Shown one piece after another: positions 28,940-64,000 of a stretch of 64,000 nt of DNA. The notes beneath the pieces were generated by a model. That model was not told the DNA's origin, ran no database searches, and was given only the letters and a program-made list of their open reading frames with translations. Source of the stretch: Alphaproteobacteria bacterium (GTDB taxonomy: Bacteria; Pseudomonadota; Alphaproteobacteria; UBA828); the NCBI GenBank assembly GCA_965214705.1, contig OZ243972.1, positions 3,328,001-3,392,000 of the forward strand. Reading direction: 5' to 3'. The translations under genes were made by a program, and so were the position numbers. Numbering within the stretch: position 1 is the first letter of the stretch; each line of letters starts with the position of its first letter.

Positions 28940-28942
28940 TCC

Positions 28943-38300: not shown

Positions 38301-39107
38301 GTGGTCGGCGGAGCAGCAGTTCCGGCGCCTGCATCTGATCGCCAACAACTCGCGTTTTGTCATTCTGACGCCTGAGCGGGTGCCGAACCTGGCCTCCCGT
38401 GTGCTGGGGCTGAGCCTGCGGCGGCTGTCGCAGGACATGCAGGCGGCGCACGGATATCCGGCTCTTCTGGCGGAGACGTTTGTGGACGTCTCGCGCTTCG
38501 CCGGCACCTGCTACCGCGCGTCGAATTGGCGCTCGCTGGGGCTGACGCGCGGCTTTGCCCGTGAGCCCGGAGGGGCGGCGCGCTGGCGTCACCACGGCCA
38601 GCCCAAGGAGGTCTTCGTGTTCGAACTGACAGACGGCGCGCCTGAGGCGCTGAGCCGGGTCGAGATGCCGGCAAACTGGAGCGCTGAGCAGCACACCGAG
38701 CCGATGGCCGCGCCCCGGCTGCGCAGCCTGTTCGAGTGTCTGGGCGAGGTGCCGGAGTACCGCCATGCCCGGGGCAAGCGCTATGAGCTCAATACCATTC
38801 TGACGCTTGCCACAGCCGCGCGGCTTGCCGGCTACCGGGGGGTGAACGCATTCGCCCAGTTCGCCGCCCTGCTCTCCCAGGAGCAGCTCAAGGCGGTGGG
38901 CGCCTTCTGGAGCCCGTCCAGGCAGCGCTACACCGCGCCCGCGATCACCACCTTCCACAACGTCCTTGCCGCGCTGCCGCCGGAGACCCTGGACAACGCC
39001 ATCGGCCAGTGGACCGGTCAGCACAACGTAAGCGGTACGCAGACCCCATACCGGAATCTGGCTTGACTACGACGGGGATTTCTTGAGGAGCGCCGTGAGC
39101 GCGCGAG

Positions 39108-40823: not shown

Positions 40824-40916
40824 GGGCCACCCCTTAATCCGATTCGCCAATGCATGACCAGGGAAAAGTGCAGGCGGGACCGCGACCGAAATCTGCGGCC
40901 CCGCCTGCGTGCCGCC

Positions 40917-41267
40917 TCACTCCGCCGCCAGCGGGCGGCGAACCGGGCGGGCCTTCACCCGGCGCCAGTCCAGACCCTCGAAGAGGGCCTCGAACTGGCC
41001 CTTCGTAAGGCGCATCACACCATCCTCGATCCGAGGCCAGGCGAAGCGGCCCTGCTCCAGACGCTTGTAGGTCATCACCAGACCGCTGCCGTCCCACGCA
41101 AGGAGCTTGAGCCTGTCGCCGCGGCGCGAGCGGAAGATCACGATCACCCCGGAATAGATATCGAGGTCCAGCTCCCCCGCCGCCGTCGCCGCAAGCGCGT
41201 CGTGGCCGCGACGAAAATCAACCGGCCGCGTCGCCAACACGATGCGAAGCGAGGGGGCCGCGATCAT
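40917..41267 (-). CDS. tnpB: IS66 accessory protein TnpB
   Basis: PVDFRRGHD, RLKLLAWDGSG, KRLEQGRF. Confidence 0.93.
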   Translation of the reverse strand: MIAAPSLRIVLATRPVDFRRGHDALAATAAGELDLDIYSGVIVIFRSRRGDRLKLLAWDGSGLVMTYKRLEQGRFAWPRIEDGVMRLTKGQFEALFEGLDWRRVKARPVRRPLAAE

Positions 41268-41719
41268 GACGACGCCCGGCCCAGGCCCGAGGCCACCGCA
41301 ACAATCCGATCGACCGCGCTCTCCACCGGAAGGCGAACGACCACGCCTAGCGCCTCGATCGCCACCGTCCGCTCGGACGTCACGCTATCAACCACCACGG
41401 GAACAAATGGCGGTGCAGAGCCACCAATCCGAGCGCCCGGAAGAGTTCCCTCCCGCGCGCGCCGCCGCCACTTGGTCAGGGTCGTATCGCTGACGCCATG
41501 GCGGCGCGCGACCGCCGCAACCGAAGAGCCCGGCTCAAAGCTCTCCGAGACAATCCGCGCCTTCTCATCGTCCGGCCAGCGTCGCATGGGGGCCGGCTCA
41601 GACGGAGCCGGGGCGGCTCCCTCAGAAGCTGGGATCTCAACCGAAGCAACAGCGACACCGTCGCCAGATGCCAAAATCGAATCTGTCATCGCGATCTCTC
41701 CTGTGTGGCTCGTGGTCAA
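41264..41719 (-). CDS. tnpA: IS66 accessory protein TnpA
   Basis: RRWPDDEKARIVSES, VAAVARRHG HTH. Confidence 0.9.
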   Translation of the reverse strand: MTTSHTGEIAMTDSILASGDGVAVASVEIPASEGAAPAPSEPAPMRRWPDDEKARIVSESFEPGSSVAAVARRHGVSDTTLTKWRRRAREGTLPGARIGGSAPPFVPVVVDSVTSERTVAIEALGVVVRLPVESAVDRIVAVASGLGRASS

Positions 41720-41934
41720 GGCGGAGAGTCAGCCCCGAAATCAGATCCGCTGGAAGTATGGGGGCCCGATACCGCTTACAGCACAACAGCGCGCACGTGC
41801 CCGTCGCCATGGACGGGAAGGACCTGCGCGGCGCGTCCGCGCAGACCGAAGACGGGCGGCGGATGATGGTCGCAGCGGTGGAGCATGACACCGGCGTCGT
41901 CCTCGGGCAGGTCGAGGTCGACGCCAAGAGCAAC

Positions 41935-43600: not shown

Positions 43601-44107
43601 AGAGCAACGAAATCCCGGCCGTGCGCGAACTCTCCGGCGGTCTCGACCTCACGGGCCGGATCGTCACCATGGATGCCATGCACGCCCTGCACGAGACCGC
43701 GCGCTGCCTCCTTGGGCGCCGTGCCGACTACGTGGTCAGCGCCGTCAAGGACAACCAGGAGACCATCCTCGAAGACCTCAAGGCGATCGACTTCAGCGAT
43801 GCGGCCTGGCACGAAACCGTCGACAAGGGCCATGGCCGCATCGAGCGCCGGCGCTGCGCCGTCGTCGACCTCTCCGCTGCCGAGTGGGACGGCTACGCCA
43901 ACCTTCACGGGCGGCGCCAGGCGATGTGCATCGAACGTGAGCGCGAGATACTCAAAACCGGCAAGCGCAGCATCGAGGTGACCTGGAGCCTGACCTCGCT
44001 TGGCGCAGAGCGGGCCGGACCCGAGGAGCTGCTCGATCTGGTGCGCAGTAAGCGGTATCGGGCCCCCATACTTCCAGCGGATCTGATTTCGGGGCTGACT
44101 CTCCGCC

Positions 44108-44563
44108 TTGACCACGAGCCACACAGGAGAGATCGCGATGACAGATTCGATTTTGGCATCTGGCGACGGTGTCGCTGTTGCTTCGGTTGAGATCCCAGCT
44201 TCTGAGGGAGCCGCCCCGGCTCCGTCTGAGCCGGCCCCCATGCGACGCTGGCCGGACGATGAGAAGGCGCGGATTGTCTCGGAGAGCTTTGAGCCGGGCT
44301 CTTCGGTTGCGGCGGTCGCGCGCCGCCATGGCGTCAGCGATACGACCCTGACCAAGTGGCGGCGGCGCGCGCGGGAGGGAACTCTTCCGGGCGCTCGGAT
44401 TGGTGGCTCTGCACCGCCATTTGTTCCCGTGGTGGTTGATAGCGTGACGTCCGAGCGGACGGTGGCGATCGAGGCGCTAGGCGTGGTCGTTCGCCTTCCG
44501 GTGGAGAGCGCGGTCGATCGGATTGTTGCGGTGGCCTCGGGCCTGGGCCGGGCGTCGTCATGA
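44108..44563 (+). CDS. tnpA: IS66 TnpA
   Basis: Identical translation to 41264-41719. Confidence 0.9.
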   Translation: MTTSHTGEIAMTDSILASGDGVAVASVEIPASEGAAPAPSEPAPMRRWPDDEKARIVSESFEPGSSVAAVARRHGVSDTTLTKWRRRAREGTLPGARIGGSAPPFVPVVVDSVTSERTVAIEALGVVVRLPVESAVDRIVAVASGLGRASS

Positions 44564-44910
44564 TCGCGGCCCCCTCGCTTCGCATCGTGTTGGCGACGCG
44601 GCCGGTTGATTTTCGTCGCGGCCACGACGCGCTTGCGGCGACGGCGGCGGGGGAGCTGGACCTCGATATCTATTCCGGGGTGATCGTGATCTTCCGCTCG
44701 CGCCGCGGCGACAGGCTCAAGCTCCTTGCGTGGGACGGCAGCGGTCTGGTGATGACCTACAAGCGTCTGGAGCAGGGCCGCTTCGCCTGGCCTCGGATCG
44801 AGGATGGTGTGATGCGCCTTACGAAGGGCCAGTTCGAGGCCCTCTTCGAGGGTCTGGACTGGCGCCGGGTGAAGGCCCGCCCGGTTCGCCGCCCGCTGGC
44901 GGCGGAGTGA
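44560..44910 (+). CDS. tnpB: IS66 TnpB
   Basis: Identical translation to 40917-41267. Confidence 0.93.
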   Translation: MIAAPSLRIVLATRPVDFRRGHDALAATAAGELDLDIYSGVIVIFRSRRGDRLKLLAWDGSGLVMTYKRLEQGRFAWPRIEDGVMRLTKGQFEALFEGLDWRRVKARPVRRPLAAE

Positions 44911-45003
44911 GGCGGCACGCAGGCGGGGCCGCAGATTTCGGTCGCGGTCCCGCCTGCACTTTTCCCTGGTCATGCATTGGCGAATCGGATTAAGGGGTGG
45001 CCC

Positions 45004-46719
45004 ATGCCGAAGGTCACGCCCTCACCCCTCAGCAGCGCCGGTTCGCCGTCGCCTGCGGTGGTTTCGGCGGCGCTGGCGGCCCTGCATGCGGAGCTTGACG
45101 ACGAGCGCGCGGCGCGCCGGGCGACGGAAGCAGCCCTATGCGAAGCGGAGCAGGCACGCGGCGCGGCGGAGGCGGCGAGGCAGACGGCGGAAGCGCGGGC
45201 GGCACGGCTGGAGGCCGAGAACGCGCAGAGCGCGGAGCAGATCAGCCGGCTTGAGCATCTCAACAAGGAGCTCAGGAAGGCGCTGTTCGGTCCGCGCTCC
45301 GAGAAGCTCGGCGAGGACGAGCGCCAGCTTACGTTCGAGGAGTTTTGGGCGGCGATCGCTGAAGCCGGCGGTCGGCCCGAGGCAGATGACCAGGAGCAGG
45401 ACGAGGGGGCTGGCGGCAAGCGCCGGCGGCGCTCTTCCCGGGGGTCGCGCAGCGGGGTGCGCTTCGGGCCCCAGGTCGACCGGCGCGAGGAGGTGATCGA
45501 GCCGGACACGATCATGTGCCCCTGCGGCTGCGGCGAGATGACGAAGATCGGCGAGGACCGCAGCGAGCGGCTGGACTATGAGCCGGCGAAGTTCACCGTC
45601 ATCGAGACCGTGCGCCCCCGCTACGCCTGCAACAAGTGCAAGGGGGGCGGGGTGGTGCAGTCGCCGGCGCCGGCCGCTCTGGTCGAGGGCGGCCTTCCCA
45701 CCGAGGCTCTTCTGGCGCAGGTGCTGATCGCGAAGTACGGCGATCATTGCCCGCTCTATCGCCAGTCGCAGATCTACGAGCGCTCGGGGATCGAGGTTCA
45801 CCGTGCGACGCTGGCGACGTGGGTGGGCCAGGCGTCGTTTCACCTGCGCCCCGTGGTCGCTTGCCTGGAGGATGAGCTGAAGAAGTCGGATCACCTGGGT
45901 CTGGACGAGACCACGATCCGCGTTCTCGACCCGGGCCGGGGCAAGACGAAGACGGGCTACATGTGGACCCTTGTGCGTGACGAGCGCCACTGGAGCGGCA
46001 CGGACCCGCCGGGCGTCGTCTATCGCTATGCGCCCGGCCGCGGCGGCAAGTATGGCGCCGAGCTTATGGAGGGCTTTTCGGGGACGGTGCAGCTCGACGG
46101 CTACTCGGGCCACAACATCCTGGCGCGGCCGGACCGGGCGGAAGGCCCTGTGACGCGGGCCCTCTGTTGGGCGCATGTAAGACGGAAGCTGAAAGAGGTA
46201 TACGACTCGAGCGCATCGCCGATCGCGCTGGCCGGTCTGAATCGGATCGCGAAGCTCTATGCGATCGAGAAGAAGATCCGGGGCAAGCCGCCGGCGGAGC
46301 GCCGCGCGATCCGTTGGGAGGAGTCGGCGCCGATCGTGAACACCTTCGGTGTCTGGCTCGACGAGCAGCGCTCGCGCGTCTCACCGCGCTCGCGTCTCGG
46401 CGAGAAGCTGACCTATATCGCCAACCAGTGGGACGGGCTGCTGGAGTTCCTGCACGACGGTCGTGTCGAGATCGACTCGAACCTGGTGGAAAACCGAATC
46501 CGGCCGCTGAAGCTCACCGCCAAGAACGCGCTCTTCGCCGGCAACGACGAGGGTGCGCAAGCCTGGGCCCGCATCGCCTCGCTGATCGAGACCTGCAAGA
46601 TGAACGGCGTCGAGCCCTACGCCTGGATGCGGAGCACGCTCGAGAAGATCGCCAAGGGCCACCCGCAGTCGGGCATCCAGGAGCTTCTGCCGTGGAACTT
46701 CCAGCCCGAGGCAAAATGA
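45004..46719 (+). CDS. tnpC: IS66 transposase TnpC
   Basis: Identical translation to copy A. Confidence 0.93.
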   Translation: MPKVTPSPLSSAGSPSPAVVSAALAALHAELDDERAARRATEAALCEAEQARGAAEAARQTAEARAARLEAENAQSAEQISRLEHLNKELRKALFGPRSEKLGEDERQLTFEEFWAAIAEAGGRPEADDQEQDEGAGGKRRRRSSRGSRSGVRFGPQVDRREEVIEPDTIMCPCGCGEMTKIGEDRSERLDYEPAKFTVIETVRPRYACNKCKGGGVVQSPAPAALVEGGLPTEALLAQVLIAKYGDHCPLYRQSQIYERSGIEVHRATLATWVGQASFHLRPVVACLEDELKKSDHLGLDETTIRVLDPGRGKTKTGYMWTLVRDERHWSGTDPPGVVYRYAPGRGGKYGAELMEGFSGTVQLDGYSGHNILARPDRAEGPVTRALCWAHVRRKLKEVYDSSASPIALAGLNRIAKLYAIEKKIRGKPPAERRAIRWEESAPIVNTFGVWLDEQRSRVSPRSRLGEKLTYIANQWDGLLEFLHDGRVEIDSNLVENRIRPLKLTAKNALFAGNDEGAQAWARIASLIETCKMNGVEPYAWMRSTLEKIAKGHPQSGIQELLPWNFQPEAK

Positions 46720-47594
46720 CTCGCGCGCTCACGGCGCTCCTCAAGAAATCCCCGTCGTAGTCAAGCCAGATTCCGGTATGGGGTCTGCGTACCGCTTACG
46801 GTGCGCAACCACTGGCACATCGAGAACCGGCTCCACTATGTGCGTGACTTCACCTACGACGAAGACCGTTGCCGGGCATACGTGCGACACCTGCCCAGAA
46901 ATCTGGCCTGCTTGAGCAATGCGGCCATCGCCATCGTGCGCTACGACGGCCGCTTCCGCTACATACCCGAGGCCAACCGGCACTACGCCGCCCGCGCCCA
47001 GGAGGCCCTCGACGCGATCATGATCGCGCCCATCGGCTGATACCGCCCCCCACCGACACGCATGCACGTGCCGCAGGGCGGCGCGGCGAAACCGCTCCGC
47101 CCGTCCAGGCCGAAAACGCCGCCCGACCGCTTCGAGCAACCACCGTGACGTCGGTCAGGCAGGCTCGGGGCTCCCCCAAACCACCAGCAGCGCGCGCGAT
47201 CTCACTCATCCCGAGCCCGCAGCGCGACTAAAAATTGTTCCTGGCCGAGGGTTATCTGGCGGCGGCGGAACAGCACGTAGAGGCGTACAGGGTGCTCGAA
47301 CGTCATGCCGGCGAGCGCGGCGTTCCCGTTGCCCGTCCCGACGCCTGGCCCCGGTGGCGCGAAACGGCCGAGCTGTTGGCGGACACCGGCAATGCCGTCC
47401 TCGCCAACGACGAGAGGTACGGCGCATATCTCGACGCGATCGCCGCCGGAAAGCCGCGCGCTCGCTTGACGGTCGAGCAGCTGCGCAACCGGCTCGACGA
47501 GAATCGCACGCGTGCGGCGAAGCCAGAGGCGCCGGTGACCCGGCGCGAGCCAAAGCCGGGGGAGCACGTGGGATTCGCGCACCTCAGGAGATCG

Positions 47595-47933
47595 ATGATG
47601 ATCGAGAAAGCGGCCAGTGCGGCGAAGGGTAGCGCGCTTCGCCAGCGGATGATGGATCAGATGCGCATTGCCAATCTGGCCGAGAGCACGCAGAGCGCCT
47701 ACATCTTCGAGATCGACCGGCTGGCCAGGCACTACGGCGCTTCGCCGGCCGGTCTGGACGGCGAGCAGCTGCGCGGCTTTATCCTGACGCTGATCGACCG
47801 GGGTCTCAGCCCGTCTTCGACCAACTCCACGCTCGCGGCCTTCAGGTTTCTCTATGTCGAGACGCTGGGCTGCCCCGAACGCGTGGCCGGGCTACGCAAT
47901 CGCAAGAAGCCGCAGGCGCTGCCGCGCCACATA
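47595..47933 (+). pseudogene. N-terminal SAM-like part of a site-specific integrase
   Basis: LRQRMMDQMRIANLAESTQSAY..AFRFLY..RKKPQALP, cut off by IS-end remnants. Confidence 0.75.
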
Positions 47934-47975
47934 TGTGGGGTGCCGGATCGCTGGACACTTTACGGGCAATCCATT

Positions 47976-48090
47976 GTAAGCGGTACCCAGATCGCCTACT
48001 GGAATCTGGATTGGCCGACTTCGACTTCGCTGGCTCGCCGGTCAACCAGCCCCTGATTCCGGAACTCGCTACGGGCGGCTTCCTCGAACC
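47976..48090 (+). pseudogene. IS66-like end fused to an IS21 IstB remnant
   Basis: GTAAGCGGTACCCAGA..GGAATCTGG followed by DFDFAGSPVNQPLIPELATGGFL. Confidence 0.6.
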
Positions 48091-48448: not shown

Positions 48449-48587
48449 CTTGAGGGCGACAGAGCCACTTGCAGAATTCCGCATTTGAGCGGGATTTTGC
48501 CGCCGTGGCGGTCAGATTGTCCTGGAAATCGGGACCGCTCTCTGTTCCTGTCGGGTTTCGGACAACGTCGACGGAGAGGGCGGCCCC

Positions 48588-48815
48588 ATGTCGCTGGGAC
48601 AGACACTATCCGGATTCTGGCATCACATTCAAGCGGGTCTTTTCCCGTGGCTTGAGGAGGAGCTCGGGCCGCTCGGCGAGAGGTACCGGCGCTTCGTCAC
48701 CGTGCTTGAGCTTGCGCGGGTCGAGAGCTTCCTTCCCCATTTCCATGGCCTGCCCGGTCGGCCGGTCGAGGATCGGGCGGCCTTGGCCCGCGCCTTCATC
48801 GCCAAGGCGGCGTGG
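48588..48815 (+). pseudogene. Transposase N-terminal remnant (IS1182/IS5-like)
   Basis: IQAGLFPWLEEELGPL..GRPVEDRAALARAFIAKA, then homology appears to break off. Confidence 0.7.
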
Positions 48816-51139: not shown

Positions 51140-52300
51140 TCAGCTGGTGGTGGAGTTGGCCGTACCGGCCAACGCCCGCGCGATGGCCGTGCCGATGCGT
51201 TCAGCCGCCGCTTCAGTCTCCTTGTCGCTCACATGAGCGTAGCGCATGGTCATGCTCGGCCGCCTGTGACCCAGCAGGCGGGAGACGACGGGCAACGGGA
51301 TGCCTTGAAGGACGGCGTGGCTTGCGAACGTGTGACGGAGGTCATGAAGGCGTACATCCTCGATCCTGGCTTCTCTACGCACCAAGTACCAGAGCGGCAG
51401 GTGATGCGAAAGCGGCCGCCTGGAATCCGTCGGCGAGGGGAAGACATATACGCACCCGGTTCGCGTCTGCCGCTCCAGGATGGCGCGCGCCGGCGCACTC
51501 AGAAAGACCCGTCTCGGTCCGGTCTTGGCGTCGGCGAGATTGAGCGTGTCTGCGTCCACGTCCTGCCAGCGCAGCGTCAGGATTTCGCTCTTCCGGCAGC
51601 CGGTCAGCAGCAGAAGGCGGATGACATCCGCTTGCCGCGCCCACGAAGGCCGTGCGCCGGCATAGCAGTCCAGCGCACGGTGGAGACGGCGCACTTCATC
51701 GCGGGACAAGAAGCGAGTGAGCTTCGGGCGGGGGTTCCGCTTGATGCCACGTGCAGGGTTTGTCTGGAGATGGTCGCAAACGATCGCATGGTTCAGGATC
51801 CGGCGGAGAAGGCTCAACGCCTTGTTGGCCGCGCCCGGCGCGGTCCGGCTGTATTCGTCGAACCAGCGGCTCACGCCGGCACGGGTGATCCGATCCAGAG
51901 GCAGCGATCCGAAGACCGGGAGCAAGCGCGCGTCGACGATCCGGCTCGCTTTCTTCCGTGTGGACGGTTTGCCTCTGTCGAAACACGCCCGTCCCGGACC
52001 CGCAGCGAAGTCGCCGAAGGTCGGCACCGCTCCGCGTTCCGGACTGCCGGACCGCGCTCCGGTCTCGATGGCGAGGCACTTGGCGCGCGCCTCCTCGACG
52101 CCCGTCAGCGCCGCAGGTCCCAGCGTGATCCTGCGCGCGCCGTCCTCGCCCCTCCGGCAATAGACGAAGCTGCGGTGCCCCGACGGCCGCACCCGCACGC
52201 CGAGACCCGTCTGGCGCGTGTCCCAGACGGTGTATTCGCGGGCCGCCGGCGTCAGCCGGGCCACGTTGGCGTCGGTCAGACGCCGCCTCTTCGCGGCCAT
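51140..52300 (-). CDS. Tyrosine recombinase B (paralog of 28943)
   Basis: Full R-K-H-R-H-Y catalytic set; colinear with 28943-30085. Confidence 0.93.
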   Translation of the reverse strand: MAAKRRRLTDANVARLTPAAREYTVWDTRQTGLGVRVRPSGHRSFVYCRRGEDGARRITLGPAALTGVEEARAKCLAIETGARSGSPERGAVPTFGDFAAGPGRACFDRGKPSTRKKASRIVDARLLPVFGSLPLDRITRAGVSRWFDEYSRTAPGAANKALSLLRRILNHAIVCDHLQTNPARGIKRNPRPKLTRFLSRDEVRRLHRALDCYAGARPSWARQADVIRLLLLTGCRKSEILTLRWQDVDADTLNLADAKTGPRRVFLSAPARAILERQTRTGCVYVFPSPTDSRRPLSHHLPLWYLVRREARIEDVRLHDLRHTFASHAVLQGIPLPVVSRLLGHRRPSMTMRYAHVSDKETEAAAERIGTAIARALAGTANSTTS

Positions 52301-52303
52301 GCG

Positions 52304-53428
52304 TCAGCCCTCAAGGACGGCGCCGACGGTATCGGCCGCCTCGCGCACCATGGCGTCGGCGAGGTGGGTGTACTTTAGGGTCGTTGCCGGATCGCGGTGT
52401 CCGAGCAGGCGGCCGATGATCAGCACCGTCTCGCCCTGCGCCAGCGCCATGCTGGCGTAGGTATGGCGCAAATCGTGAAGTCGGACGTCGCACAAGTCTG
52501 CCTCGGCTCTGATGCGTTGCCAGGCCTGGTCGAGTGCCTTCGTGGTCAGGCAACTGTCGGTTTGCGGCGAGGGAAAGACCCAGACCGCGCTGCGGGGCAG
52601 GCTGTCGAGAACCTCGCGCGCGGCGGACGAGAGCCAGACCGTGCGCGGCCCGGACTTGCTGTCGCGCAGGAACAGCTTGCCCTCTCGGTAGTCGCGCCAT
52701 TCGAGGGTGACGATCTCGCCCTTGCGGCATCCGGTGAGCAGCAGCAGCCGTATGATCGCCGCGGCCTGCGGCCGGCCGGCCTTATGGCGTGCCAGAACCT
52801 TGCCCAGCCGGCGCATCTCCGCCGCCGACAGGAAGCGCTCCCGCCCCTGGCGCCGGTATCGTCTGATGCCCGCGCACGGATTGGTGCCCTCTGGCCGGTA
52901 GCCGTAGACCTCGGCCTGGCGCATGATGACCGACAGGACGGGAGCCGAGCGGTCGGCAGTCACCGGGGTCTCGTGAAGGGATGCGAACCACTGCCGGACG
53001 TCGCTCACGGCGATACCGGCGATCGGTCGGCCTTCGAACCAGGGCAGGATCTGGTTGCGGTAATAGCGCCGGTTGACGTTGAGCGTAGACGGCTTCCAGT
53101 TTCGTGCGTAGCGCCGGAACACTTCGTCGGCGACCGTCTCGAACAGTGTGTCCTGCGGCGCGGCGGCTTGGTCGTCGTCTCCCCTGCGGATCGCGGCCAA
53201 GAGGGCCCTGGCCCGGTCGCGGGCCTCGTCCGTGCCGATGGCACCGGCCTGGCCCACGATCTTCCAGACCCGTCGGCCCTGGTGTTGGCTGTGAATGAAG
53301 TACCGCTTGGCGCCCGAGGGCAGGACCCTGACGCCGAATCCCTTGAGTTCTCGGTCGCGAACGTCGTAGGCGGCCTTTCGGGGCTTGAGCGTGTTGACAC
53401 GGCGTTCGTTGAGGCGAAGCGTAGCCAT
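52304..53428 (-). CDS. Tyrosine recombinase A (paralog of 27818)
   Basis: MATLRL start after GGAGG; full catalytic set. Confidence 0.93.
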   Translation of the reverse strand: MATLRLNERRVNTLKPRKAAYDVRDRELKGFGVRVLPSGAKRYFIHSQHQGRRVWKIVGQAGAIGTDEARDRARALLAAIRRGDDDQAAAPQDTLFETVADEVFRRYARNWKPSTLNVNRRYYRNQILPWFEGRPIAGIAVSDVRQWFASLHETPVTADRSAPVLSVIMRQAEVYGYRPEGTNPCAGIRRYRRQGRERFLSAAEMRRLGKVLARHKAGRPQAAAIIRLLLLTGCRKGEIVTLEWRDYREGKLFLRDSKSGPRTVWLSSAAREVLDSLPRSAVWVFPSPQTDSCLTTKALDQAWQRIRAEADLCDVRLHDLRHTYASMALAQGETVLIIGRLLGHRDPATTLKYTHLADAMVREAADTVGAVLEG

Positions 53429-53557
53429 CGATTTTCCTCCTTCGCTCCGTTGCAGCCGGGGCAAAACGCAGGGCGATTCCGCGCTTTCCGGCCAATGCAG
53501 GAGGAAATAAGCAACGCTATGTCAGTATGTTAGCACCGCAGGTGCGCCCGGTGGTGT

Positions 53558-54625: not shown

Positions 54626-56656
54626 CCCGACTTCCGCAACTCGGGGGTTATGAGGGTGCTAACCCATTGATTCTCCGTGATCGGACCCCCAAAGGTCGGC
54701 ACTACAGAGCGCCGAACGGAGGGGCGGTCCGTGCGCAGTCAGGCGGAGAACCGCGGCCCGGGCTGTTGCGGCAGGGTCATGCCGATACCCGGAACAAGTC
54801 CGGGCAGGTGCAGTAGAAGCTCGTGCTCCTTGTTCGGCCGGGTGTGGCGCGGCAGGATCAAGTGCCGGCCGTCGGTGGTCGGCAGGTGGACGTCCACCAT
54901 CTGGATGGTGGCGAACGCCTCGATGATGGCGCGGGGCGTCAGCCCGTTGGCGCGCGGGCGGGCGAGGTTCTTCAGCGTGACCAGCAGGCAGTAGGCAATG
55001 AAGGAGACGAAGATGTGCGCCTCGATCCGCTTCTCGCGCTGATGGAAGATGGGACGGATGGCGAGGTCGTGCTTGAGCTCCTTGAACGCCTGCTCGATCT
55101 CGATCAACTGCATGTACAGGTGCCAGAGCGTGGCGGGGTCTTCGGCGGTCATGTTGGATCGCAAGAGGTAGCGGCCCTCTCGGCGGCGCACGCGGCGTAG
55201 CCGGTCGCGCCGCAGGCGGAATGAGAAGCCGTCGGCGGCGAGTTCCTTGTCGGTCTCGGGCACGCGGATGCCGACCAGGTTCCAGGCCCGGCCCACCTCC
55301 TTCCTGGCGGCGCCGAGCTTGAGCATCAGTTGATCTCGGCTGTTGGACTGCCCTTGCAGCTCGCGCAACCGGTGCCACAGCTTCTTGAGCCGCCGCCGAC
55401 GCATGCCGCGTTCCTTCAGCTGCCGCCCCTCGCTGCGCACCAGGACGTAGAGTTCGCCGTCTTCGACCAGCAGCTTGACGTTCACGGACTGGCGCACCTC
55501 CTGCCAGGGCAGATCCAGGAATGCCTTCTCCAGCCGCGTCAGCCGCCCCTTCGGCGTGCCCACCAGATAGCGCACCGGCGCCTCACCCGCGCGCATTGCC
55601 GCCAGCGTCTCCTCGGTAGGGATGCCACGGTCCATGATCCAGATCCGGTCGGAGCGGCCGTATTGCCGTTCGATCTTCTCGAGGAACCCCGCCAGCGTGG
55701 TCTGGTCGGCGGTATTCCCCGGCATCACCTCGTAGGCCAGCGGGAAGCCCTCGGGCGTCACGATCAGCGCGATCACCACCTGCACGCAGTCAGGCCGCTT
55801 GTCCCGGCTGTAGCCGAAGCGGCGCTTGTCCTCGAACGGCGGGTCGCTCTCGAAGTACGTGCTGGTCAGATCATACAGCAGGACATCGAAGCGCGCGTCG
55901 AACAGCGCCGCCCAGCGGCCGCGCAGGAACGAGAAGAAGTCCTGCTTGTGCTCCAGCAGCTTGTCGAGGCAGCGATACAGTGTGTCGTCGGCGACCGCCC
56001 GGTCGCTGCCCAGCAGATCGCGCAACGCGCTGTGCTCGTACCAGTGACGGTGAAGACGCCACTCGCTGCCCGGATCGATCAGCCGGTAGCAGGCCTGGAT
56101 CTTCAGGATGTCCAGCCACCTCGTGCCTTGCCGGCTCGGCGGCAGGCGCGGACCCCAGAAGCGGTCCAGATCAAGACGGTCCCACAACGCCAAGGCCAGC
56201 CAGCACGCCCCCCACTGGCGCGGGTCGTGAAGCGCCACCTCCGAGACGTTGATCTTGACCACTTCGCAGTTCAGCGCCGGCGCCTCCCGATCCTCGGGAA
56301 AGAGCGCCATCTGACGCGACCCCGACTTGCCCTCCACCACCTCGATCGAGCGGCACCACGCCGCGCGCTGATTGTCGTTGATCTCGCCGAGATAGAGAAC
56401 GTGGCGCTGAACGACCCGGCCGCCGCGGACCCGGACGTTCTCCACCACGCTCCAGTAGCGGTGCTCCTTGCCGTCTTTGAAGCGTCTCTTGCAGCGCACG
56501 AACATGGTCGAATCGTCCGCCGCCGCGGCACCCCGATCAAGGGGGTAGGTCGGCACTACACGCGGTTCTGGAAGGGCAAAGCCCGGAAATCCGCCACTTT
56601 CCGGGCCGAAAAACCGTCAAATTGGCCGAATCGCGTGCCGAGTTGCGGAAGTCGGG
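54626..56656 (-). mobile_element. IS1634-family element
   Basis: 19-bp perfect TIR CCCGACTTCCGCAACTCGG; no matching TSD. Confidence 0.9.
54739..56505 (-). CDS. IS1634 transposase
   Basis: MFVRCKRRFKDGKEHRYWSVVE, YDLTSTYFE, GYSRDKRPD, MDRG, IEQAFKELK. Confidence 0.92.
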   Translation of the reverse strand: MFVRCKRRFKDGKEHRYWSVVENVRVRGGRVVQRHVLYLGEINDNQRAAWCRSIEVVEGKSGSRQMALFPEDREAPALNCEVVKINVSEVALHDPRQWGACWLALALWDRLDLDRFWGPRLPPSRQGTRWLDILKIQACYRLIDPGSEWRLHRHWYEHSALRDLLGSDRAVADDTLYRCLDKLLEHKQDFFSFLRGRWAALFDARFDVLLYDLTSTYFESDPPFEDKRRFGYSRDKRPDCVQVVIALIVTPEGFPLAYEVMPGNTADQTTLAGFLEKIERQYGRSDRIWIMDRGIPTEETLAAMRAGEAPVRYLVGTPKGRLTRLEKAFLDLPWQEVRQSVNVKLLVEDGELYVLVRSEGRQLKERGMRRRRLKKLWHRLRELQGQSNSRDQLMLKLGAARKEVGRAWNLVGIRVPETDKELAADGFSFRLRRDRLRRVRRREGRYLLRSNMTAEDPATLWHLYMQLIEIEQAFKELKHDLAIRPIFHQREKRIEAHIFVSFIAYCLLVTLKNLARPRANGLTPRAIIEAFATIQMVDVHLPTTDGRHLILPRHTRPNKEHELLLHLPGLVPGIGMTLPQQPGPRFSA

Positions 56657-56912
56657 ATAGGGCGGTTTTCGGCCGACAATCCCACGATCACGCGGCAGCG
56701 GAGGGGCCCCCCGACTGCCGGCCGGGCACCGCCTCCGCCGGATAGACCGCCCCCACCCCGGTACGGGTCGACCGGAAGCGCGAGCCCGGCGCTCGCCGCC
56801 CTCACGGACGCACGGGCGACGGCACGGGCTACCGCCAAGCCGATGTCGCGGATATGATCGCCTGCCGGTGCCGCCCAGCGCTCCGGCTACCCTGACCATC
56901 GAGCAAGCGGGC

Positions 56913-59648
56913 ATGGCGTCGAGGAAGCACAGCCGCAAGGGGCGCAGGCGCAAGCGGCCTGGCAAGGTCACCGCCGTCCAGCAGCTGAATCAGGCCCGTC
57001 GGCGGCTGGCCAGCGGGGACGCCCGCGGCGCCCTCGATCTCCTGAAGCGGGTGCCGGACGGGGAGCACGACCCGGCAGGCAAGGCGTGCCTGCATTTCTG
57101 CGCTCTGACGCAGCGGGCCCGTCAACTGGCACGGCGGGGCCAGAAGAAGGAGGCGGCCGCCATGCGCGCGCGGGCCGCCGAGCAGCGGTCATCCATCCCT
57201 GCCGGGGCGCTGGGGGAGGAGGACCTGATGAGCTACCTCCGCCATCTTGATCCTGGCGAGGCGGTCGCAACCTACGCGGGATACATGAAGGAGAGATCGC
57301 CGATCGCCGGGGCTGAGCGCCTGCTCGCCGACAGGCTAGTGACCCGGCGGTGCTGGGCGAGTCTGGACGCGCTCGACGCGAGCCATGCGCTTCGCCGCGA
57401 CGCGGACCACGTCATGCGCGGCCTCGACGCGATGGACGCGGGAGAGTGGGAGCGTGCGGCGGATCTGCTGCGCGGGCTGCACCGGCGCTCGCCGTTCGCG
57501 GCCTGGCGCGTGTTCTGCAAGGCGATGGCGTGTTTCGGTGCCGGCGACGACGAGGGCCTGCGCCGTGCGGCGGACCTTCTGCCCGGGGAGTTCGCGCTTG
57601 CCGGCATCGTCGCCGAGTTGCGGCGGGCTGGCGGGGGCGGGGGCAAGGGCGGCTCTTCCAGGGTTCAGCGGGCCCTGGGAACGGACGGCGCGACGGTCTC
57701 GGAGCTGGGCGAGGAGTTGCGCCAGGCTCTTCGCAGGAACGAGCGCGAGCGGGTCATCGAGCGACTGATGAGCCGCCTGGCCGATGCACTCAGCCCCGAC
57801 GATCCCCTGCCGGCGCTTGTCGATCTGGTGCAGATTGCGGGCTTGGCCACCGCGCGCAGCCACCTCTCCATGGGCGCAGTGGAGCGGCTGGCACAGCACC
57901 TTCTGCCGGCCAGGCGGGTTCCGGGCCTGATCTCCAGGATCGGGTTGGTTCTTCAGCAGGCCTCCCTGGGCGCATGGAACCCCGGTGCGGCGGGATCCCT
58001 GCTGGGCCGCCTTCGCGAGGAGTTCCCCCGGTCCGGGGATCATGGTCTGGTTCGGGGCCGCGTATACGAGGCGCTGGCGAGGATCGGACATCGGAGCGTG
58101 CAGCCGGAGCTGCTGCCGGCCCCGAAGGTGCGGGAGCTGATCCTGCTTCTCGATGGGCGGTCCTTCGAGGCCGGGACGGTGTTTGCCGATCTGATGCAGG
58201 AGAGCCTGCTGGCCGATCCCGGCAACCGCGACGGCTATCGCTTCCTGGCGGAGCTGTTGCGGGGCCGCAGGCAGGACAGGAACCGTCTGCGGCGGGTGCT
58301 GGAGGACACGGCGTCCCGATTTCCCGAGGATGCTGAGCCCTGGCTTGAGTTGACCGAGCTTCACTACGCCGGCAATGCGTACCGGCGGGCGGAGGAGGCT
58401 CTTGCCGAGGCCCGGCGGCGCGCTCCGCATGACGAGCGCATCGTCGGCCTGCAGGCGGTGGGCTTCCTCAAGTCATCGGACCAGAGCCGCAAGAGCGGAC
58501 GGTTCGAGCTGGCGGCCCGGGATTTGCAGCGGGCCGAGGCGCTGGGGGGCTCCCGGCTGACAGACATCGTGCCGGTGAAGAGGCTTCTGCTGGACCTGGT
58601 GTCGTCGGGCGGGGATGCCGCCGCGGTCGTGGTTCCCCGTCTTTCCGCCCTGCCTCCTGCCGGGCAGATCAGGACCCTGGCGCTGCTGCTTCACGAGCTG
58701 GAAGCGAACAGCACCGTCAGGAACGTCACGCCCGAGATGACGCATGCCGTGCGAGGCCTTCTGGCTCTCAGGGCGCCCATGATCGATGACATCGATGGGG
58801 AGGAGGCGGCCGGTCTTCTGGCTCCCCTCCCAGGGGATTTTCGGATCCTCTATGGCCGCCTTCATGTCGCGCCGGTCCTGGCCGACTTCTGGGGCGCGAT
58901 CATGCGCGGGCAGCGGGACGACGGTCTGCTGGATGTCTTCGACATTCTGCTGGACTGCGGCGGCCGGGCTGCCGTGCGGGCCGAGATCGGGCTTCGCCTA
59001 GCCGGAACGAGCAAGGCGGAGCGGGATCCGTTGCTGCTCCTGTACCTTGCGGCGATCCGCTACCAGGAAGGCGACGACGACGATTCCCGGCGCTTCTTTG
59101 AGGCGCTGGAATCGGCAGCCCCGTCCGAGCGCGAGCGCCTGCGGGTGGGAGCCGGGCGGCTTGCCCGGGTCAGCGCGGGCATCCTGCGCGAAGCGCTTCA
59201 CACGTTCGACTTCGGGCTTCTGGACCCGCCCGAGCCGCTGTTCGGGGGCGACGCTCCGGGACCGCTCTCGAGCCTTCTGGACGAGATCCTGGGACCCGAG
59301 GAAGAGCCGTCCGGAGAAGAACCGTCTCTCGACGCGTTCCTGGATGCTCTGAGGGTCGGCCTGCAGGCGGGATTGCCGGGCCAGCCCTGCCAGACCTCGT
59401 TGTTCGACGACGACGAGGCGGCACGTGAGCTGGAGACGCTGGAAGGCTTGATCGACCGGCACTGGCTTCGCGGGGTTCCCTCTCCGCTGCTGAGGGAGGT
59501 GGCGGAGGTGGCGAGAGCGGAGCCTGGGATTCGGCACAACCTGGACCGCAGCGCCCGCACGTGCGAGGAGTCGGGGCTTCGCGACGGGCTGAGCCGGGAG
59601 GCGCGTATCTTCCTCTTTCCCCGCAAGCAGGGTCGCCGGAGGGCGTAG
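56913..59648 (+). CDS. Large helical/TPR-like repeat protein
   Basis: About 911 aa, Ala/Leu/Arg-rich helices; TPR-like RFPEDAEPWLEL..AEEALAEARRRAPHD; basic N-terminus; first gene of the operon. Confidence 0.7.
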   Translation: MASRKHSRKGRRRKRPGKVTAVQQLNQARRRLASGDARGALDLLKRVPDGEHDPAGKACLHFCALTQRARQLARRGQKKEAAAMRARAAEQRSSIPAGALGEEDLMSYLRHLDPGEAVATYAGYMKERSPIAGAERLLADRLVTRRCWASLDALDASHALRRDADHVMRGLDAMDAGEWERAADLLRGLHRRSPFAAWRVFCKAMACFGAGDDEGLRRAADLLPGEFALAGIVAELRRAGGGGGKGGSSRVQRALGTDGATVSELGEELRQALRRNERERVIERLMSRLADALSPDDPLPALVDLVQIAGLATARSHLSMGAVERLAQHLLPARRVPGLISRIGLVLQQASLGAWNPGAAGSLLGRLREEFPRSGDHGLVRGRVYEALARIGHRSVQPELLPAPKVRELILLLDGRSFEAGTVFADLMQESLLADPGNRDGYRFLAELLRGRRQDRNRLRRVLEDTASRFPEDAEPWLELTELHYAGNAYRRAEEALAEARRRAPHDERIVGLQAVGFLKSSDQSRKSGRFELAARDLQRAEALGGSRLTDIVPVKRLLLDLVSSGGDAAAVVVPRLSALPPAGQIRTLALLLHELEANSTVRNVTPEMTHAVRGLLALRAPMIDDIDGEEAAGLLAPLPGDFRILYGRLHVAPVLADFWGAIMRGQRDDGLLDVFDILLDCGGRAAVRAEIGLRLAGTSKAERDPLLLLYLAAIRYQEGDDDDSRRFFEALESAAPSERERLRVGAGRLARVSAGILREALHTFDFGLLDPPEPLFGGDAPGPLSSLLDEILGPEEEPSGEEPSLDAFLDALRVGLQAGLPGQPCQTSLFDDDEAARELETLEGLIDRHWLRGVPSPLLREVAEVARAEPGIRHNLDRSARTCEESGLRDGLSREARIFLFPRKQGRRRA

Positions 59649-59651
59649 GCG

Positions 59652-59957
59652 ATGCTGGCTCACTATCTTGCTCTGGGGCTTTCCCCCTCCGCCTCGCGGG
59701 AGGAGGTTCGCCGGCGCTACCTCGAGCTGATCCGGGCGCATCCGCCGAGCCGGGAGCCGGCGTACAGCGAGCGGATCGTGGCCGCCTACGAAGCCCTGAA
59801 GGACGATCGCTCGCGCGTGGAGACGGCGATGTTCGGGATGTCCCGGCATGGCGATTTCGAGCTGGCTCTGGACGCGCTGGTGCAGGCGCGGCCGCGCGGG
59901 CGTGCCACCCCGGGCCTGCAGGCGCTGATTGCGGCGGAAGGCGCAGAGGATGAGTGA
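59652..59957 (+). CDS. Small J-domain-like protein (HPP instead of HPD)
   Basis: HYLALGLSPSASREEVRRRYLELIRAHPP..IVAAYEALKD. Confidence 0.85.
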   Translation: MLAHYLALGLSPSASREEVRRRYLELIRAHPPSREPAYSERIVAAYEALKDDRSRVETAMFGMSRHGDFELALDALVQARPRGRATPGLQALIAAEGAEDE

Positions 59958-60617
59958 GCCTGACGGCGACTGGAAGCGCCGCGCCCTTGAGGATTTCGGG
60001 CACTGGCTCGACGAACTGGAGGAGGAGGACAGCGGCGACGGCGGGACCGGTATAGCGCCGGAGCCAGATTTGCGCGACTTGTTCGCCGAGCTTGCGGCGC
60101 TGCGCCAGGAGGTCCGGCTGCAAAACCGCGAGCAGTCGAAGGCGGGCCGGGAGCTTGCCCAGGCGGCGGCACGCTACGACGGCGCTGCGGCGTTGATGAA
60201 GCGCCGCGAGGACGATCTTGCGGCATTCGAGACGCGGGTCTCGCGCGAGGCCGAGAACCGCTGCCTGCGCTCTGTTCTCGAGGTGCGCGATGCCCTGGTC
60301 CGGGGCTTGGAGGCAGGGACGGCGCTGCGCGAACGCCCCGGCTTGTTCCGCCGCCCGCCGCGGGGTATGCGCGGCGTCGCCGAGGGCTACGAGATCGCAC
60401 TCAGGCGTTTCGACCGGATGCTGTCCGGGTTCGGGGTCGAGCGCCTGCGGACCGCAGGCCAGCCGTTCGATGCGCGCACCATGCACGCGGCGGAGGTCCG
60501 CCGGGTCGCGGGGGTCGGGAGCGGCATGGTGGTCGAGGAGCTGCTCAGCGGCTACACCCGGGGCGGCGACATTCTGCGCCTCGCCGAGGTGGCCGTGAAC
60601 CGCAACGAGAGGCAGGA

Positions 60618-60621
<4 letters not shown>
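59950..60621 (+). CDS. grpE: GrpE-like nucleotide exchange factor
   Basis: Coiled coil, then GQPFDARTMHAA, VVEELLSGY, LRLAEVAV. Confidence 0.87.
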
Positions 60622-62396
<1,775 letters not shown>

Positions 62397-62400
62397 GCCG

Positions 62401-62760
62401 GTGCTCCGCTGCCCGACCTGCGGCGCCGGGGGGATCGAGGGCCCGACATGCCACCGCTGCCGGACCGACCTGCGCCAGGTGCTGGCCGTCGAGCGGGCCG
62501 CTGCGCAGTGCCGGCGGCGGGCGGCGGCCGCGCTGGCAAGCGGCTGCGGCGACCGGGCGCGCGCCCTTGCGGACAGGGCCTGCGCACTCCACCGCTGCCA
62601 TGCGTCCGTTTCCCTGCGCGCCGCGGCCGCGCTCGTCGATGGCGAGTTCGGCTTGGCCCTCCGTCTGTGGCGGGAGGTCCGAAGCGGGCCGCCGGACAAC
62701 CCCGCTCCGGCGAACGCACGCGCTTCTATCGCTCCCTCGCCCGCCGTTCCACGAAACTGA
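62401..62760 (+). CDS. Zn-ribbon (CxxC..CxxC) plus TPR-like small protein
   Basis: RCPTCGAGGIEGPTCHRCRTDL followed by Ala-rich helices; starts 4 bp after the Hsp70 stop. Confidence 0.72.
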   Translation: MLRCPTCGAGGIEGPTCHRCRTDLRQVLAVERAAAQCRRRAAAALASGCGDRARALADRACALHRCHASVSLRAAAALVDGEFGLALRLWREVRSGPPDNPAPANARASIAPSPAVPRN

Positions 62761-62816
62761 GTGCCGCGCAGGCGATGAGTCCGGAGCGGGATACCCCCTC
62801 CCGCGATGCGGCTTCG

Positions 62817-63215
62817 TCAATGATCGCAAGCAGGCGCGATGGCACCGAGAGCTGCCCAGCGCGTGGGACGGCTCACCGATCCCTTGCTCCGAAGGGCGTA
62901 TACGAGAGGCGATCGTGCGCTCGGCCGCGAGAGGGCATCCTCCCAGGCATCGACGGCATCGCCAAGCGCGTTCCAGCGCTCCTCCAGCCCCATGTCGGCC
63001 ATGCGCTGTTGCTCGATCCTGGCGAGCAGCAGAAGCTCGCGCACCGTGCGGCGCAGAACGCTATCCGGCAGCGGGTCCGGCGCGCTCGCCCTGTGCACGA
63101 TGTAGCGCGAGAGATCCATGCCCGCGTCGGCAGCGAGTTCGCGAATGCGCGCCCATTCGCTTGCTGTCGTCATCACCGCGTGCTGTGTGCGGCGCTCCGT
63201 CGGCCGGCGGCTCAT
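62817..63215 (-). CDS. RHH/MobC-like DNA-binding protein (longest copy, C)
   Basis: TQHAVMTTASEWARIRELAADAGMDLSRYIVHRA fits a beta-helix-helix pattern; two paralogs in the window. Confidence 0.72.
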   Translation of the reverse strand: MSRRPTERRTQHAVMTTASEWARIRELAADAGMDLSRYIVHRASAPDPLPDSVLRRTVRELLLLARIEQQRMADMGLEERWNALGDAVDAWEDALSRPSARSPLVYALRSKGSVSRPTRWAALGAIAPACDH

Positions 63216-63597
63216 GAGGGCACCCCGGGGACGGTGCAATACTGCGTGACCAACCTCGAAGGACCCGCGTGCGTGCCGCAACTACCTACATAACACCATA
63301 TAATACAGTTACGACTTGCCCATCCGCATACGTCATGAGAACCCACCGCCTTACGCCCTCTAGGAACGCGAATATCCATCGTGTGTTTCTCCGCACAGAC
63401 AGACTCGCAACCACTGACATATGCCTTCACTTCCCAGATTGCAACTGATCGGTTCGCGGCGCAAAATTTTATATCAGATAAAAGCCGCCACAATCCTCTT
63501 GTGAAACGACCCAATCACCTGTAATATACTACATATGCAGGAGAGAAAGCGACCCACTCCACTACCTGACATACCCCAACAATATCAAGTTTAGGAC

Positions 63598-64000
63598 CAC
63601 ACCGACAAGGCCGGCCAGCCGGTCCGAAGCCATCGCCTCGTGCTCGCCCAGCGCGTCGGCGACAAGGTGCGCCACAGGACGCTGCTCAATCTCGGCACCG
63701 ACTATCCGGTGCCGCGCGAGAAGTGGAAGGCCGTCACCGAACTCGCCGAGGCGCTGCTTCACGGCAAGCCGCCGCTGTTCGAGGGCGAGGCGGATGTGCG
63801 GGCCGCAGCCGAGGACATCGTCGCCAAGCTCAGGGCCAGGGGGTTCCGCGTCGAGGCGATGCAGGAAGAGGCGCGCAAGCCCGACATCGCCACCGTCGAC
63901 CTCGATACCCTGGAGCACGAGAACCCGCGCACGGTCGGCTGCGAGCGCCTGTGCCTCAAGGCCCTCGACGCCCTCGGCTTCGCCGAAATCCTCCACGGCC
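63598..64000 (+). pseudogene. Body of the IS1634 transposase lacking its start (runs off the window)
   Basis: HRLVLAQRVGDKVRHRTLLNLG..TVDLDTLEHENPRTVGCERL; frame open to the window end; its start codon lies at 27661. Confidence 0.82.

Follow-up and report, generated by a model that had tools for sequence, protein, structure and literature searches.

A horizontally mobile five-gene bacterial cassette that may form a dedicated Hsp70 machine on a large TPR-like protein

Introduction

Why should a bacterium that already encodes a complete grpE-dnaK-dnaJ cluster carry a further and very different Hsp70 set, and what might that set act on? The question is raised by a locus in a 64,000-nucleotide stretch of an alphaproteobacterial genome (assembly GCA_965214705.1, contig OZ243972.1, positions 3,328,001 to 3,392,000), hereafter the window. 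Five adjacent genes, here called the cassette, encode a large protein resembling tetratricopeptide repeat (TPR) proteins, which we term the scaffold, followed by a small J-like protein, a GrpE, an Hsp70 and a zinc-ribbon (Zn-ribbon) protein. An initial annotation, made from the letters of the window, had read them as a private chaperone machine acting on the TPR-like protein, perhaps as a sensor or switch in anti-phage defence.

To our knowledge, among bacterial Hsp70s only DnaK, HscA and, to a lesser extent, HscC are understood. Bacterial DnaK derivatives beyond HscA and HscC are called largely unexplored 'dark matter' in passages of a 2026 review (PMC13580251). The five-gene cassette itself appears to be undescribed: full-text searches of the literature gave no description of it, and the supplementary neighbourhood tables that accompany PMC7159879 might list related HSP70 clusters.

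Here we report that the five genes are inherited together across many bacterial genomes, that their Hsp70 forms a clade of its own, and that complex prediction places the J-like protein on the scaffold. We read the cassette as a horizontally mobile, self-contained and dedicated Hsp70 machine working on a large TPR platform, accessory to the ordinary DnaK system, and hold this view with slightly better than even confidence.

Results

A compact gene set beside the housekeeping DnaK system

The genes of the cassette (Table 1) are separated, from 5' to 3', by a gap of 3 nt, an overlap of 29 nt, an overlap of 4 nt and a gap of 4 nt. All five open reading frames (ORFs) are intact and, from this spacing, translationally coupled, and third-position GC is 0.83-0.90 in the first four. 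The start chosen for the scaffold is supported by a MAS.K beginning common to its homologues; the GTG start of the Zn-ribbon gene, two residues ahead of the first CxxC, recurs at the same position in relatives. The cassette region holds no promoter-like site (none resembling sigma-70), no terminator-like site and no Rfam RNA family. When the window copy is compared with a second copy in the same genome, the ratio of nonsynonymous to synonymous substitution rates (dN/dS) is 0.18-0.54 and stop codons are absent; the genes are under purifying selection between the copies.

The genome spans 7.9 Mb in three contigs and has its canonical grpE-dnaK-dnaJ cluster at C1:183358-187275, the housekeeping grpE occupying C1:186808-187275. 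The cassette is thus an extra system beside the housekeeping DnaK set. ORFs, spacings and Pfam families confirm the five intact, tightly packed genes of the initial annotation; its description of the individual genes is correct, since ORFs and Pfam names agree, as is its remark that the cassette lacks a dnaJ context.

An Hsp70 with a clade of its own

The cassette Hsp70 is a member of its superfamily (Pfam HSP70, PF00012, 464.3 bits against a cut-off of 20.6). It falls below the equivalog cut-offs for canonical DnaK (NCBIfam NF001413, 490.4 against 648; TIGR02350, 483.9 against 822.55) and for HscA (TIGR01991, 390.9 against 708.55), and the cassette contains no isc genes. It is 38.6% identical to the DnaK of its own genome and 36.9%, 38.2% and 35.6% identical to the DnaK, HscA and HscC of Escherichia coli. 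A quick maximum-likelihood tree places 60 cassette Hsp70s in a separate clade that excludes HscC; the branches leading to HscC and HscA in this tree are long.

The ATPase residues D8, K70, E171, D194, T199 and D201 are kept in all 60 of these proteins, as are R151, R167, Q378, the linker residues L391 and D393, and P419. Changes are found in the J-contact residues E206 and D477 and in the substrate-pocket residues M404, S427, A429 and T437, a loop of the substrate domain carries an insertion of eight residues, and the protein has 592 aa (amino acids) against 648 aa in the genome's own DnaK. The divergent substrate domain and short lid noted at the outset are therefore real, and scores, identity and tree agree that this is not a housekeeping DnaK.

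The extreme C-terminus is near-invariant. Among 64 complete frames, 60 end in the motif (EILFYLE in 46, close variants in 14); one of the other four has the motif followed by two residues, and three are aberrant (L044, L075, L078). Several loci of Vicinamibacterales (L044, L048, L066, L075, L078) show an interrupted or incomplete Hsp70, such as a match to query positions 14-509 only or a frame that ends in unrelated residues, and L078 has an insertion in the scaffold gene as well; some copies of the cassette are therefore decaying.

A J-like protein without HPD and a divergent GrpE

The J-like protein passes the Pfam DnaJ profile (PF00226) over residues 4-55 with 27.9 bits against a cut-off of 27.8, and no client-binding domain of DnaJ is found in it by Pfam. 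The loop after helix II varies among 71 relatives, reading HPP in 32, HRP in 25, YPP in 3, NPP in 3 and FTP in 2, with six single variants; one relative aligned as HQD beside a three-residue insertion has HRV in its raw sequence. Judged from sequence, then, the protein fits the J-domain profile and lacks the HPD on which J-domain function depends. Its C-terminal half (residues 55-98) is well conserved.

According to passages of PMC8215388, the HPD aspartate bonds to R167 and Q378 of DnaK. Both of these partners are present in the cassette Hsp70. Because the aspartate is missing from the J-like loop, the ATPase is probably triggered in a non-canonical way, or under the control of the scaffold or a client.

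The GrpE is recognised by Pfam (PF01025, 66.6 bits against 25.8) and lies below all NCBIfam GrpE equivalog cut-offs, the best being 33.7 against 231.

A helical-repeat scaffold and its predicted docking to the J-like protein

Pfam finds TPR_19 in the scaffold only at residues 476-530 (28.1 bits against a cut-off of 25). The AlphaFold2 model, built on a 58-row alignment, has a mean predicted local distance difference test score (pLDDT) of 84.5 and a predicted template modelling score (pTM) of 0.55; it comprises an all-helical solenoid (20-770), a disordered stretch (774-832) and a small helical domain (832-901). A Foldseek search of the PDB gave 75 matches at E<=0.001, and those listed are TPR or other helical-repeat scaffolds, including Ski3, Ctr9, Naa15, IFT-A and TTC7. 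By profile and predicted solenoid fold, the protein is a TPR/helical-repeat scaffold. No catalytic or effector domain emerged from the model or the PDB search, and a protein-atlas search returned only 'hypothetical' or TPR clusters. The protein carries conserved, strongly basic tails at its two ends, and the C-terminal one consists of a hydrophobic core followed by arginines, a composition typical of DnaK-binding peptides.

The family is sizeable, with 182 hits among 8000 scored candidates and, in a profile search, 211 cluster representatives at E<=1e-30 and 397 at E<=1e-10. One subclass (L074, L080-L082; rows of 780-800 aa) matches positions 1-780 only, and so is without the disordered linker and the C-terminal helical domain; in Bryobacterales loci it still stands within a five-gene cassette.

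Predicted as a complex, scaffold residues 18-911 and the J-like protein reach an ipSAE (interaction prediction score from aligned errors) of 0.76, whereas none of three controls exceeds 0.00. Of 80 solved complexes, 58 attain the ipSAE mark, as do 2 of 110 mismatched pairs; these counts hold only roughly because our own alignments were used. At least 92% of contacts recur between runs, and the partners have a pLDDT of at least 85. In the models, J-like residues 52-98 lie on scaffold residues 143-435, and the interface leaves out the greater part of the J-like helices and the HPP loop with them. Complex prediction thus supports binding of the J-like protein to the scaffold, and with it the link between chaperone genes and TPR-like protein that had been proposed. 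Among 3759 candidates there is one natural TPR-J fusion (P0055), which hints weakly at the same association, and one J-like protein of 178 aa.

A small Zn-ribbon protein with TPR-like hairpins

The last gene encodes a four-cysteine knuckle (CPTC...CxRC) followed by four helices that AlphaFold2 models as two TPR-like hairpins (pLDDT 87.4). The cysteines C4, C7, C17 and C20 are invariant in 30 sequences, and no family in Pfam, NCBIfam or PADLOC describes the protein. Foldseek gave no match at E<=0.001; small TPR co-chaperone domains stand at the top of the list, with a best E of 0.14.

In a metagenome-assembled genome (MAG) of Desulfobacterales (L084:2078-2701), a Zn-ribbon homologue comes straight after a short TPR stretch resembling the scaffold, and genes for a J-like protein, GrpE or Hsp70 are not detected there; the locus represents a minimal relative with two genes, or else a remnant.

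The five genes are inherited together

A scan of one genome per species yielded 75 scaffold loci, 65 of which extend at least 3.3 kb downstream. The full set of five, in unchanged order, is found at 58 of these 65. The remaining seven comprise two Desulfamplus loci, very distant and with a short scaffold match, one locus with a partial and one without a detectable Zn-ribbon match, two fragments, and a single scaffold-only locus. The latter (L030, a Vicinamibacterales MAG) has a full-length scaffold and 9 kb of downstream sequence in which the other four genes are undetected, the only such case among the 65. In the converse direction, a search with the Hsp70 tail peptide retrieved seven metagenome stretches, one of them a chance match: the Zn-ribbon gene directly follows the Hsp70 gene in all six true hits, and all five genes are present in both stretches with room upstream. 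These counts support the cassette as a co-inherited unit, and they bear out the prediction that the TPR-like and Zn-ribbon genes would co-occur with this Hsp70 clade.

No further gene is conserved beside the cassette, as no cluster of flanking proteins occurs in more than 11 of the 75 loci. The nearest neighbours are heterogeneous and mostly metabolic; the most frequent Pfam family is found at 7 of 65 loci upstream and 4 of 57 downstream.

Record titles and tree labels name eight phyla (Pseudomonadota, Acidobacteriota, Latescibacterota, Spirochaetota, Binatota, Chloroflexota, Thermodesulfobacteriota and Bacillota), two of which may be binning artefacts because their rows are almost identical to those of another phylum. 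Hsp70 identities are 62-94% in the main group. Closer to the window the distribution is patchy: 4 of 49 genomes of its order, some of them incomplete, carry the scaffold, and all four belong to one genus, in which 3 of 20 other species have it; elsewhere in the order the count is 0 of 28.

A repeated unit that probably moves as a whole

The cassette is contained in a 6.1-kb unit (56822-62944) found three times in the genome by blastn (Table 1), in keeping with the mobility first claimed for it. Between copies 2 and 3 identity is 99.96% over 5.8 kb, and their match runs on for 1.65 kb through a convergent gene for a 429-aa tyrosine integrase, giving a unit of 7.8 kb. Upstream of 56822 they share 12 more bases; otherwise the upstream flanks diverge. 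The Zn-ribbon gene of copy 3 is split by a 2.75-kb element of the IS66 family of insertion sequences (IS), the flanking matches overlapping by 10 bases (62585-62594). An assembly from Vicinamibacterales contains six cassette copies, one of them degraded, which have a 6.2-kb unit in common.

No tRNA lies at the loci of copies 2 and 3, direct or inverted repeats of at least 9 bp are absent from the ends of the 7.8-kb unit, and relatives of the scaffold are absent from 72,556 plasmid records, 50,697 phage records and the IMG/VR contigs. Horizontal mobility of the cassette as a unit best fits its multiple copies in two genomes and its patchy presence in the order of the window.

Habitat and expression of close relatives

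The window is partly present in 20 of 23 listed public sequencing runs. Four were aligned in detail, and runs with a small share (X14, X15, X19 and others) were not used as habitat evidence. In runs labelled as sponge metagenome (X13) and coral metagenome (X8), contigs fall in 30 of 30 bins, and most of them are 85%-99% alike. An RNA library (X20) made from the sample of the coral run has contigs on the scaffold, the scaffold/J junction, the J/GrpE overlap, GrpE and Hsp70, a weak hint of transcription in a close relative, with carry-over of DNA possible. A gap in the X20 contigs, such as that at 62175-63300, is not taken to mean that transcription is lacking.

Surroundings of the cassette in the window

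From 27.8 kb on, the window is dense with mobile and defence-type genes, among them a TraI-like helicase. The restriction-modification (RM) and DUF4238 genes pointed out in the initial annotation are indeed present, the latter matching the first 111 of 281 profile positions. That annotation had also placed the cassette inside one integrative element with them, which is not shown here: both the second integrase pair and the DDE transposase stand to the left of the cassette, whose own repeat unit measures only 6.1 kb. Decay of neighbouring cargo, likewise claimed for most of it, is seen in two examples, an integrase piece and an ORF that combines a partial Druantia DruA match with a transposase-associated domain and is probably a fragment or fusion created by transposition.

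Several features of the window are repeated elsewhere in the genome. The tyrosine integrase pair, about 2.4 kb long, occurs in more than 10 places at about 80-97% identity and looks like a family of tandem-integrase elements. At 48462-48810 stands a repeat of about 350 bp, to which no ORF is assigned; its roughly 30 copies on the three contigs are 99% identical, and it may be a miniature mobile element. Positions 63593-64000 form the edge of a repeat that continues past the end of the window; more than 40 of its copies are 99.8% identical, and those of a second set about 89%.

Table 1. Coordinates of the cassette, its repeat unit and copies, and other features of the window
Feature	Position	Strand	Remarks
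TPR-like helical-repeat protein (scaffold)	56913-59648	+	911 aa; ATG start at 56913; Pfam TPR_19
J-like protein	59652-59957	+	101 aa; Pfam DnaJ, HPP instead of HPD
GrpE, divergent	59929-60621	+	230 aa; Pfam GrpE
Hsp70, separate clade	60618-62396	+	592 aa; Pfam HSP70
Zn-ribbon protein	62401-62760	+	119 aa; GTG start, begins VLRCPTCG
Non-coding leader common to repeat copies; left edge of 6.1-kb repeat	56822-56912	+	start of blastn match
Repeat-unit tail common to copies	62761-62944	+	truncated at 62944 in window copy; end of blastn match
Cassette copy 2	C1:2968941-2975060		97.0% to window copy
Cassette copy 3	C3:1312034-1317803 and 1320554-1320913		96.9% and 98.1% to window copy
Tandem tyrosine integrases	27818-30085	+	Arm-DNA-bind_3 + Phage_integrase
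Type ISP restriction-modification enzyme	30419-33730		1103 aa
DUF4238 protein	33746-34603		directly after RM gene
Partial Druantia DruA match + DDE_Tnp_1-associated domain	38050-39066		one ORF; DruA profile positions 48-220 of 297
IS66-family element, two inverted 2.75-kb copies	39027-41779 and 44048-46799		dozens of copies, 99-100%, on all three contigs
Integrase N-terminal piece	47235-48056		example of decay
Tandem tyrosine integrases	51140-53464	-	Arm-DNA-bind_3 + Phage_integrase
DDE transposase	54739-56556		
NikA-like ORF	62817-63281	-	within other repeated element that cuts the cassette unit at 62944

Discussion

How a dedicated Hsp70 machine might work on the scaffold

If the cassette is a dedicated Hsp70 machine, its proteins may work as follows. 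The C-terminal half of the J-like protein would seat on the concave N-terminal half of the scaffold, as in the predicted complex, leaving the J-like helices free. These helices could recruit the cassette Hsp70, in which the ATPase residues, the linker, R167 and Q378 are intact, and the cassette GrpE, going by its family membership, would reset it. With its remodelled pocket the Hsp70 may then act on a protein bound to the scaffold, or on the tails of the scaffold itself. More speculatively, the Zn-ribbon/TPR-like protein might serve as a co-factor that reads the EILFYLE tail of the Hsp70, by analogy with the eukaryotic TPR co-chaperones that read EEVD. Stress tolerance, host interaction, conflict and maintenance of a mobile element are all candidates for the role of such a machine.

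Several observations weigh against this picture. The J-like protein clears its Pfam cut-off by 0.1 bit, and HPD stands in the loop after helix II in 0 of 71 relatives; passages of PMC8215388 state that changing the H or the D of HPD abolishes ATPase stimulation in every system tested, and by that rule the J-like protein may not drive the Hsp70 cycle. The complex score expresses model confidence and is not a measurement of binding. Conserved positions are not significantly enriched at the scaffold side of the interface (26 of 68 against 224 of 826, Fisher p 0.07; p 0.30 within residues 140-440), and the TPR-J fusion is a single case among the candidates screened, too little for independent support. 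Foldseek gave the Zn-ribbon protein no significant match, and the roles given to it (as tail reader), to the Hsp70 tail and to the scaffold tails are analogies. The X20 contigs, finally, may stem from DNA and cannot rank expression.

Other explanations of the cassette

The initial annotation fares unevenly here: the dedicated Hsp70 and its predicted link to the scaffold are supported, and the defence sensor or switch finds no support in PADLOC or in the neighbouring genes. An anti-phage or conflict system, in which the scaffold would sense a foreign protein and the Hsp70 cycle would set a threshold for the response or execute it, has some appeal, as the cassette is an accessory set with a patchy distribution and several copies, the surroundings of the window copy abound in mobile elements and include the Type ISP RM gene and DUF4238, and a few loci have defence or mobile neighbours (HicB, Cas1, a Type I restriction subunit, NYN, Macro). 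There is even a printed precedent, in passages of PMC7159879, in the predicted GAP1-N2 GTPase conflict systems with HSP70, GrpE and DnaJ- or TPR-fused proteins. Yet PADLOC-DB 2.0.0 has no family for four of the proteins and one weak row for the Hsp70 (PDC-M61B, 16.6 bits, E 6e-4, no stretch passing alone), none of the five has a recognisable effector or toxin domain, the cassette has no GTPase, and the mostly metabolic, heterogeneous neighbours show no family above the low counts given earlier. Several near-identical copies per genome are also unusual for a defence system, and we regard a defence function as distinctly unlikely. An interaction with marine-invertebrate hosts, the eukaryote-like TPR protein being the active agent that the private Hsp70 set folds, holds or hands over, strikes us as unlikely too. 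It would suit the close relatives that cover all 30 bins in the sponge- and coral-labelled runs, the spread over eight phylum labels with Hsp70s 62-94% identical in the main group, and the conserved basic scaffold tails, which resemble nuclear-localisation signals; TPR and ankyrin proteins are moreover a recurring theme in the available portions of sponge-symbiont papers. It is less easily squared with the lack of a signal peptide, secretion system or conserved neighbour linked to the cassette and with the more distant scaffold relatives (the 211 representatives above), and the 75 loci reflect whatever has been sequenced.

DnaK, DnaJ and GrpE activate replication or recombination proteins of lambda and P1, and the cassette could be a helper module by which an element brings its own Hsp70 set to activate such proteins in any host. 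Sharp-edged repeat units in two unrelated genomes, the near-identity of copies 2 and 3 including their convergent integrase, and the IS-rich context all point that way; we nonetheless give this idea only a slim chance, since across loci the cassette has no integrase, transposase or replication gene as a constant neighbour, the unit ends have no terminal repeats of at least 9 bp and no tRNA nearby, and the plasmid, phage and IMG/VR collections contain no scaffold relatives. That the cassette is simply a second general-purpose DnaK system adding stress capacity is highly improbable. An Hsp70 that comes complete with a GrpE and a J-like protein, and whose ATPase and linker residues are intact, is what one would expect of it; the sub-threshold DnaK scores, low identity to the genome's own DnaK, separate clade, remodelled pocket, absence of HPD and of DnaJ client-binding domains, and strict linkage to the scaffold and Zn-ribbon genes are not.

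Relation to known Hsp70 systems

A dedicated Hsp70 machine of the kind we favour would work most like the specialised systems HscA/HscB and HscC/DjlC, and on scores, identities and tree it is a member of neither. In E. coli, HscA, the Hsp70 devoted to assembling Fe-S clusters, is encoded beside its own small J-type adaptor, HscB, whose non-J part binds one defined partner, IscU, and delivers it; HscB has HPD, and HscA works without GrpE. The cassette shares the pairing of a specialised Hsp70 with a small adaptor; it differs in lacking HPD, encoding a GrpE, having a 911-aa TPR solenoid as predicted partner in place of IscU, standing outside an isc context and scoring below the HscA cut-off.

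The nearest bacterial analogue is HscC with DjlB and DjlC, an accessory and sporadic Hsp70 with private J-proteins, whose E. coli locus also encodes the Sel1 (TPR-like) helical-repeat proteins YbeQ and YbeT. In E. coli K-12 (L089, 676000-690000) a triplet of Sel1-repeat protein, DUF1266 protein and J-protein occurs twice near hscC, as ybeQ-ybeR-djlB and ybeT-ybeU-djlC, a pairing of helical-repeat and J-proteins reminiscent of the cassette. The sporadic occurrence of HscC suggests horizontal transfer, according to passages of PMC8215388. Unlike the cassette, however, the hscC locus has no GrpE, Zn-ribbon protein or 900-aa scaffold, DjlB and DjlC are long J-proteins compared with the 101-aa J-like protein, and HscC, at its 35.6% identity, falls outside the cassette clade.

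Eukaryotic TPR co-chaperones such as Hop, CHIP, Tom70 and Sgt2 read the C-terminal EEVD of Hsp70. The cassette resembles these pairs in having an Hsp70 with a conserved extreme C-terminus and TPR proteins encoded alongside, and the helical part of the Zn-ribbon protein superposes on TPR domains of this kind, though not significantly; in contrast, the tail is EILFYLE, there are two TPR-like hairpins rather than three repeats, and the genes are bacterial-type, with a GrpE. Pam16/Tim16 is a mitochondrial J-fold protein without HPD that acts as a tether or regulator and not as an ATPase activator. The J-like protein, with its J-domain signature and no HPD, may be comparable; Pam16 pairs with a true J-protein, Pam18, whereas the cassette encodes no second J-protein. 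The predicted GAP1-N2 GTPase systems (Kaur et al. 2020, PMC7159879, in passages) likewise combine HSP70, GrpE and J/TPR modules, the latter fused to FNIII proteins, in an accessory cluster, and they are reported mainly from actinobacteria and firmicutes; unlike them, the cassette has no GTPase or FNIII among its proteins (by Pfam) or its conserved neighbours.

Biological relevance

A bolder version of the dedicated machine can be stated as one joint claim, which we think rather doubtful as a whole: a 900-aa TPR platform with a permanent HPD-less J-like tether would let the private Hsp70 and GrpE work on captured proteins, the Zn-ribbon/TPR protein would read the Hsp70 tail, and the 6-kb unit would move between phyla that share sponge and coral hosts, being kept for remodelling foreign (host or phage) proteins or for protecting the symbiont in its host. 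If true, it would be a bacterial counterpart of the eukaryotic Hsp70/TPR co-chaperone networks.

The cassette is a clean test case, with five genes, no other conserved partner and a predicted interface between adaptor and platform. Its spread among uncultured bacteria of numerous phyla, several copies per genome and presence in metagenomes labelled as sponge and coral suggest a function that is selectable, transplantable and assayable. The tail motif of its Hsp70 could be a docking signal, and its J-like protein breaks the HPD rule; if a J-like protein without HPD drives or gates the Hsp70 cycle, a textbook rule of Hsp70 biology would change.

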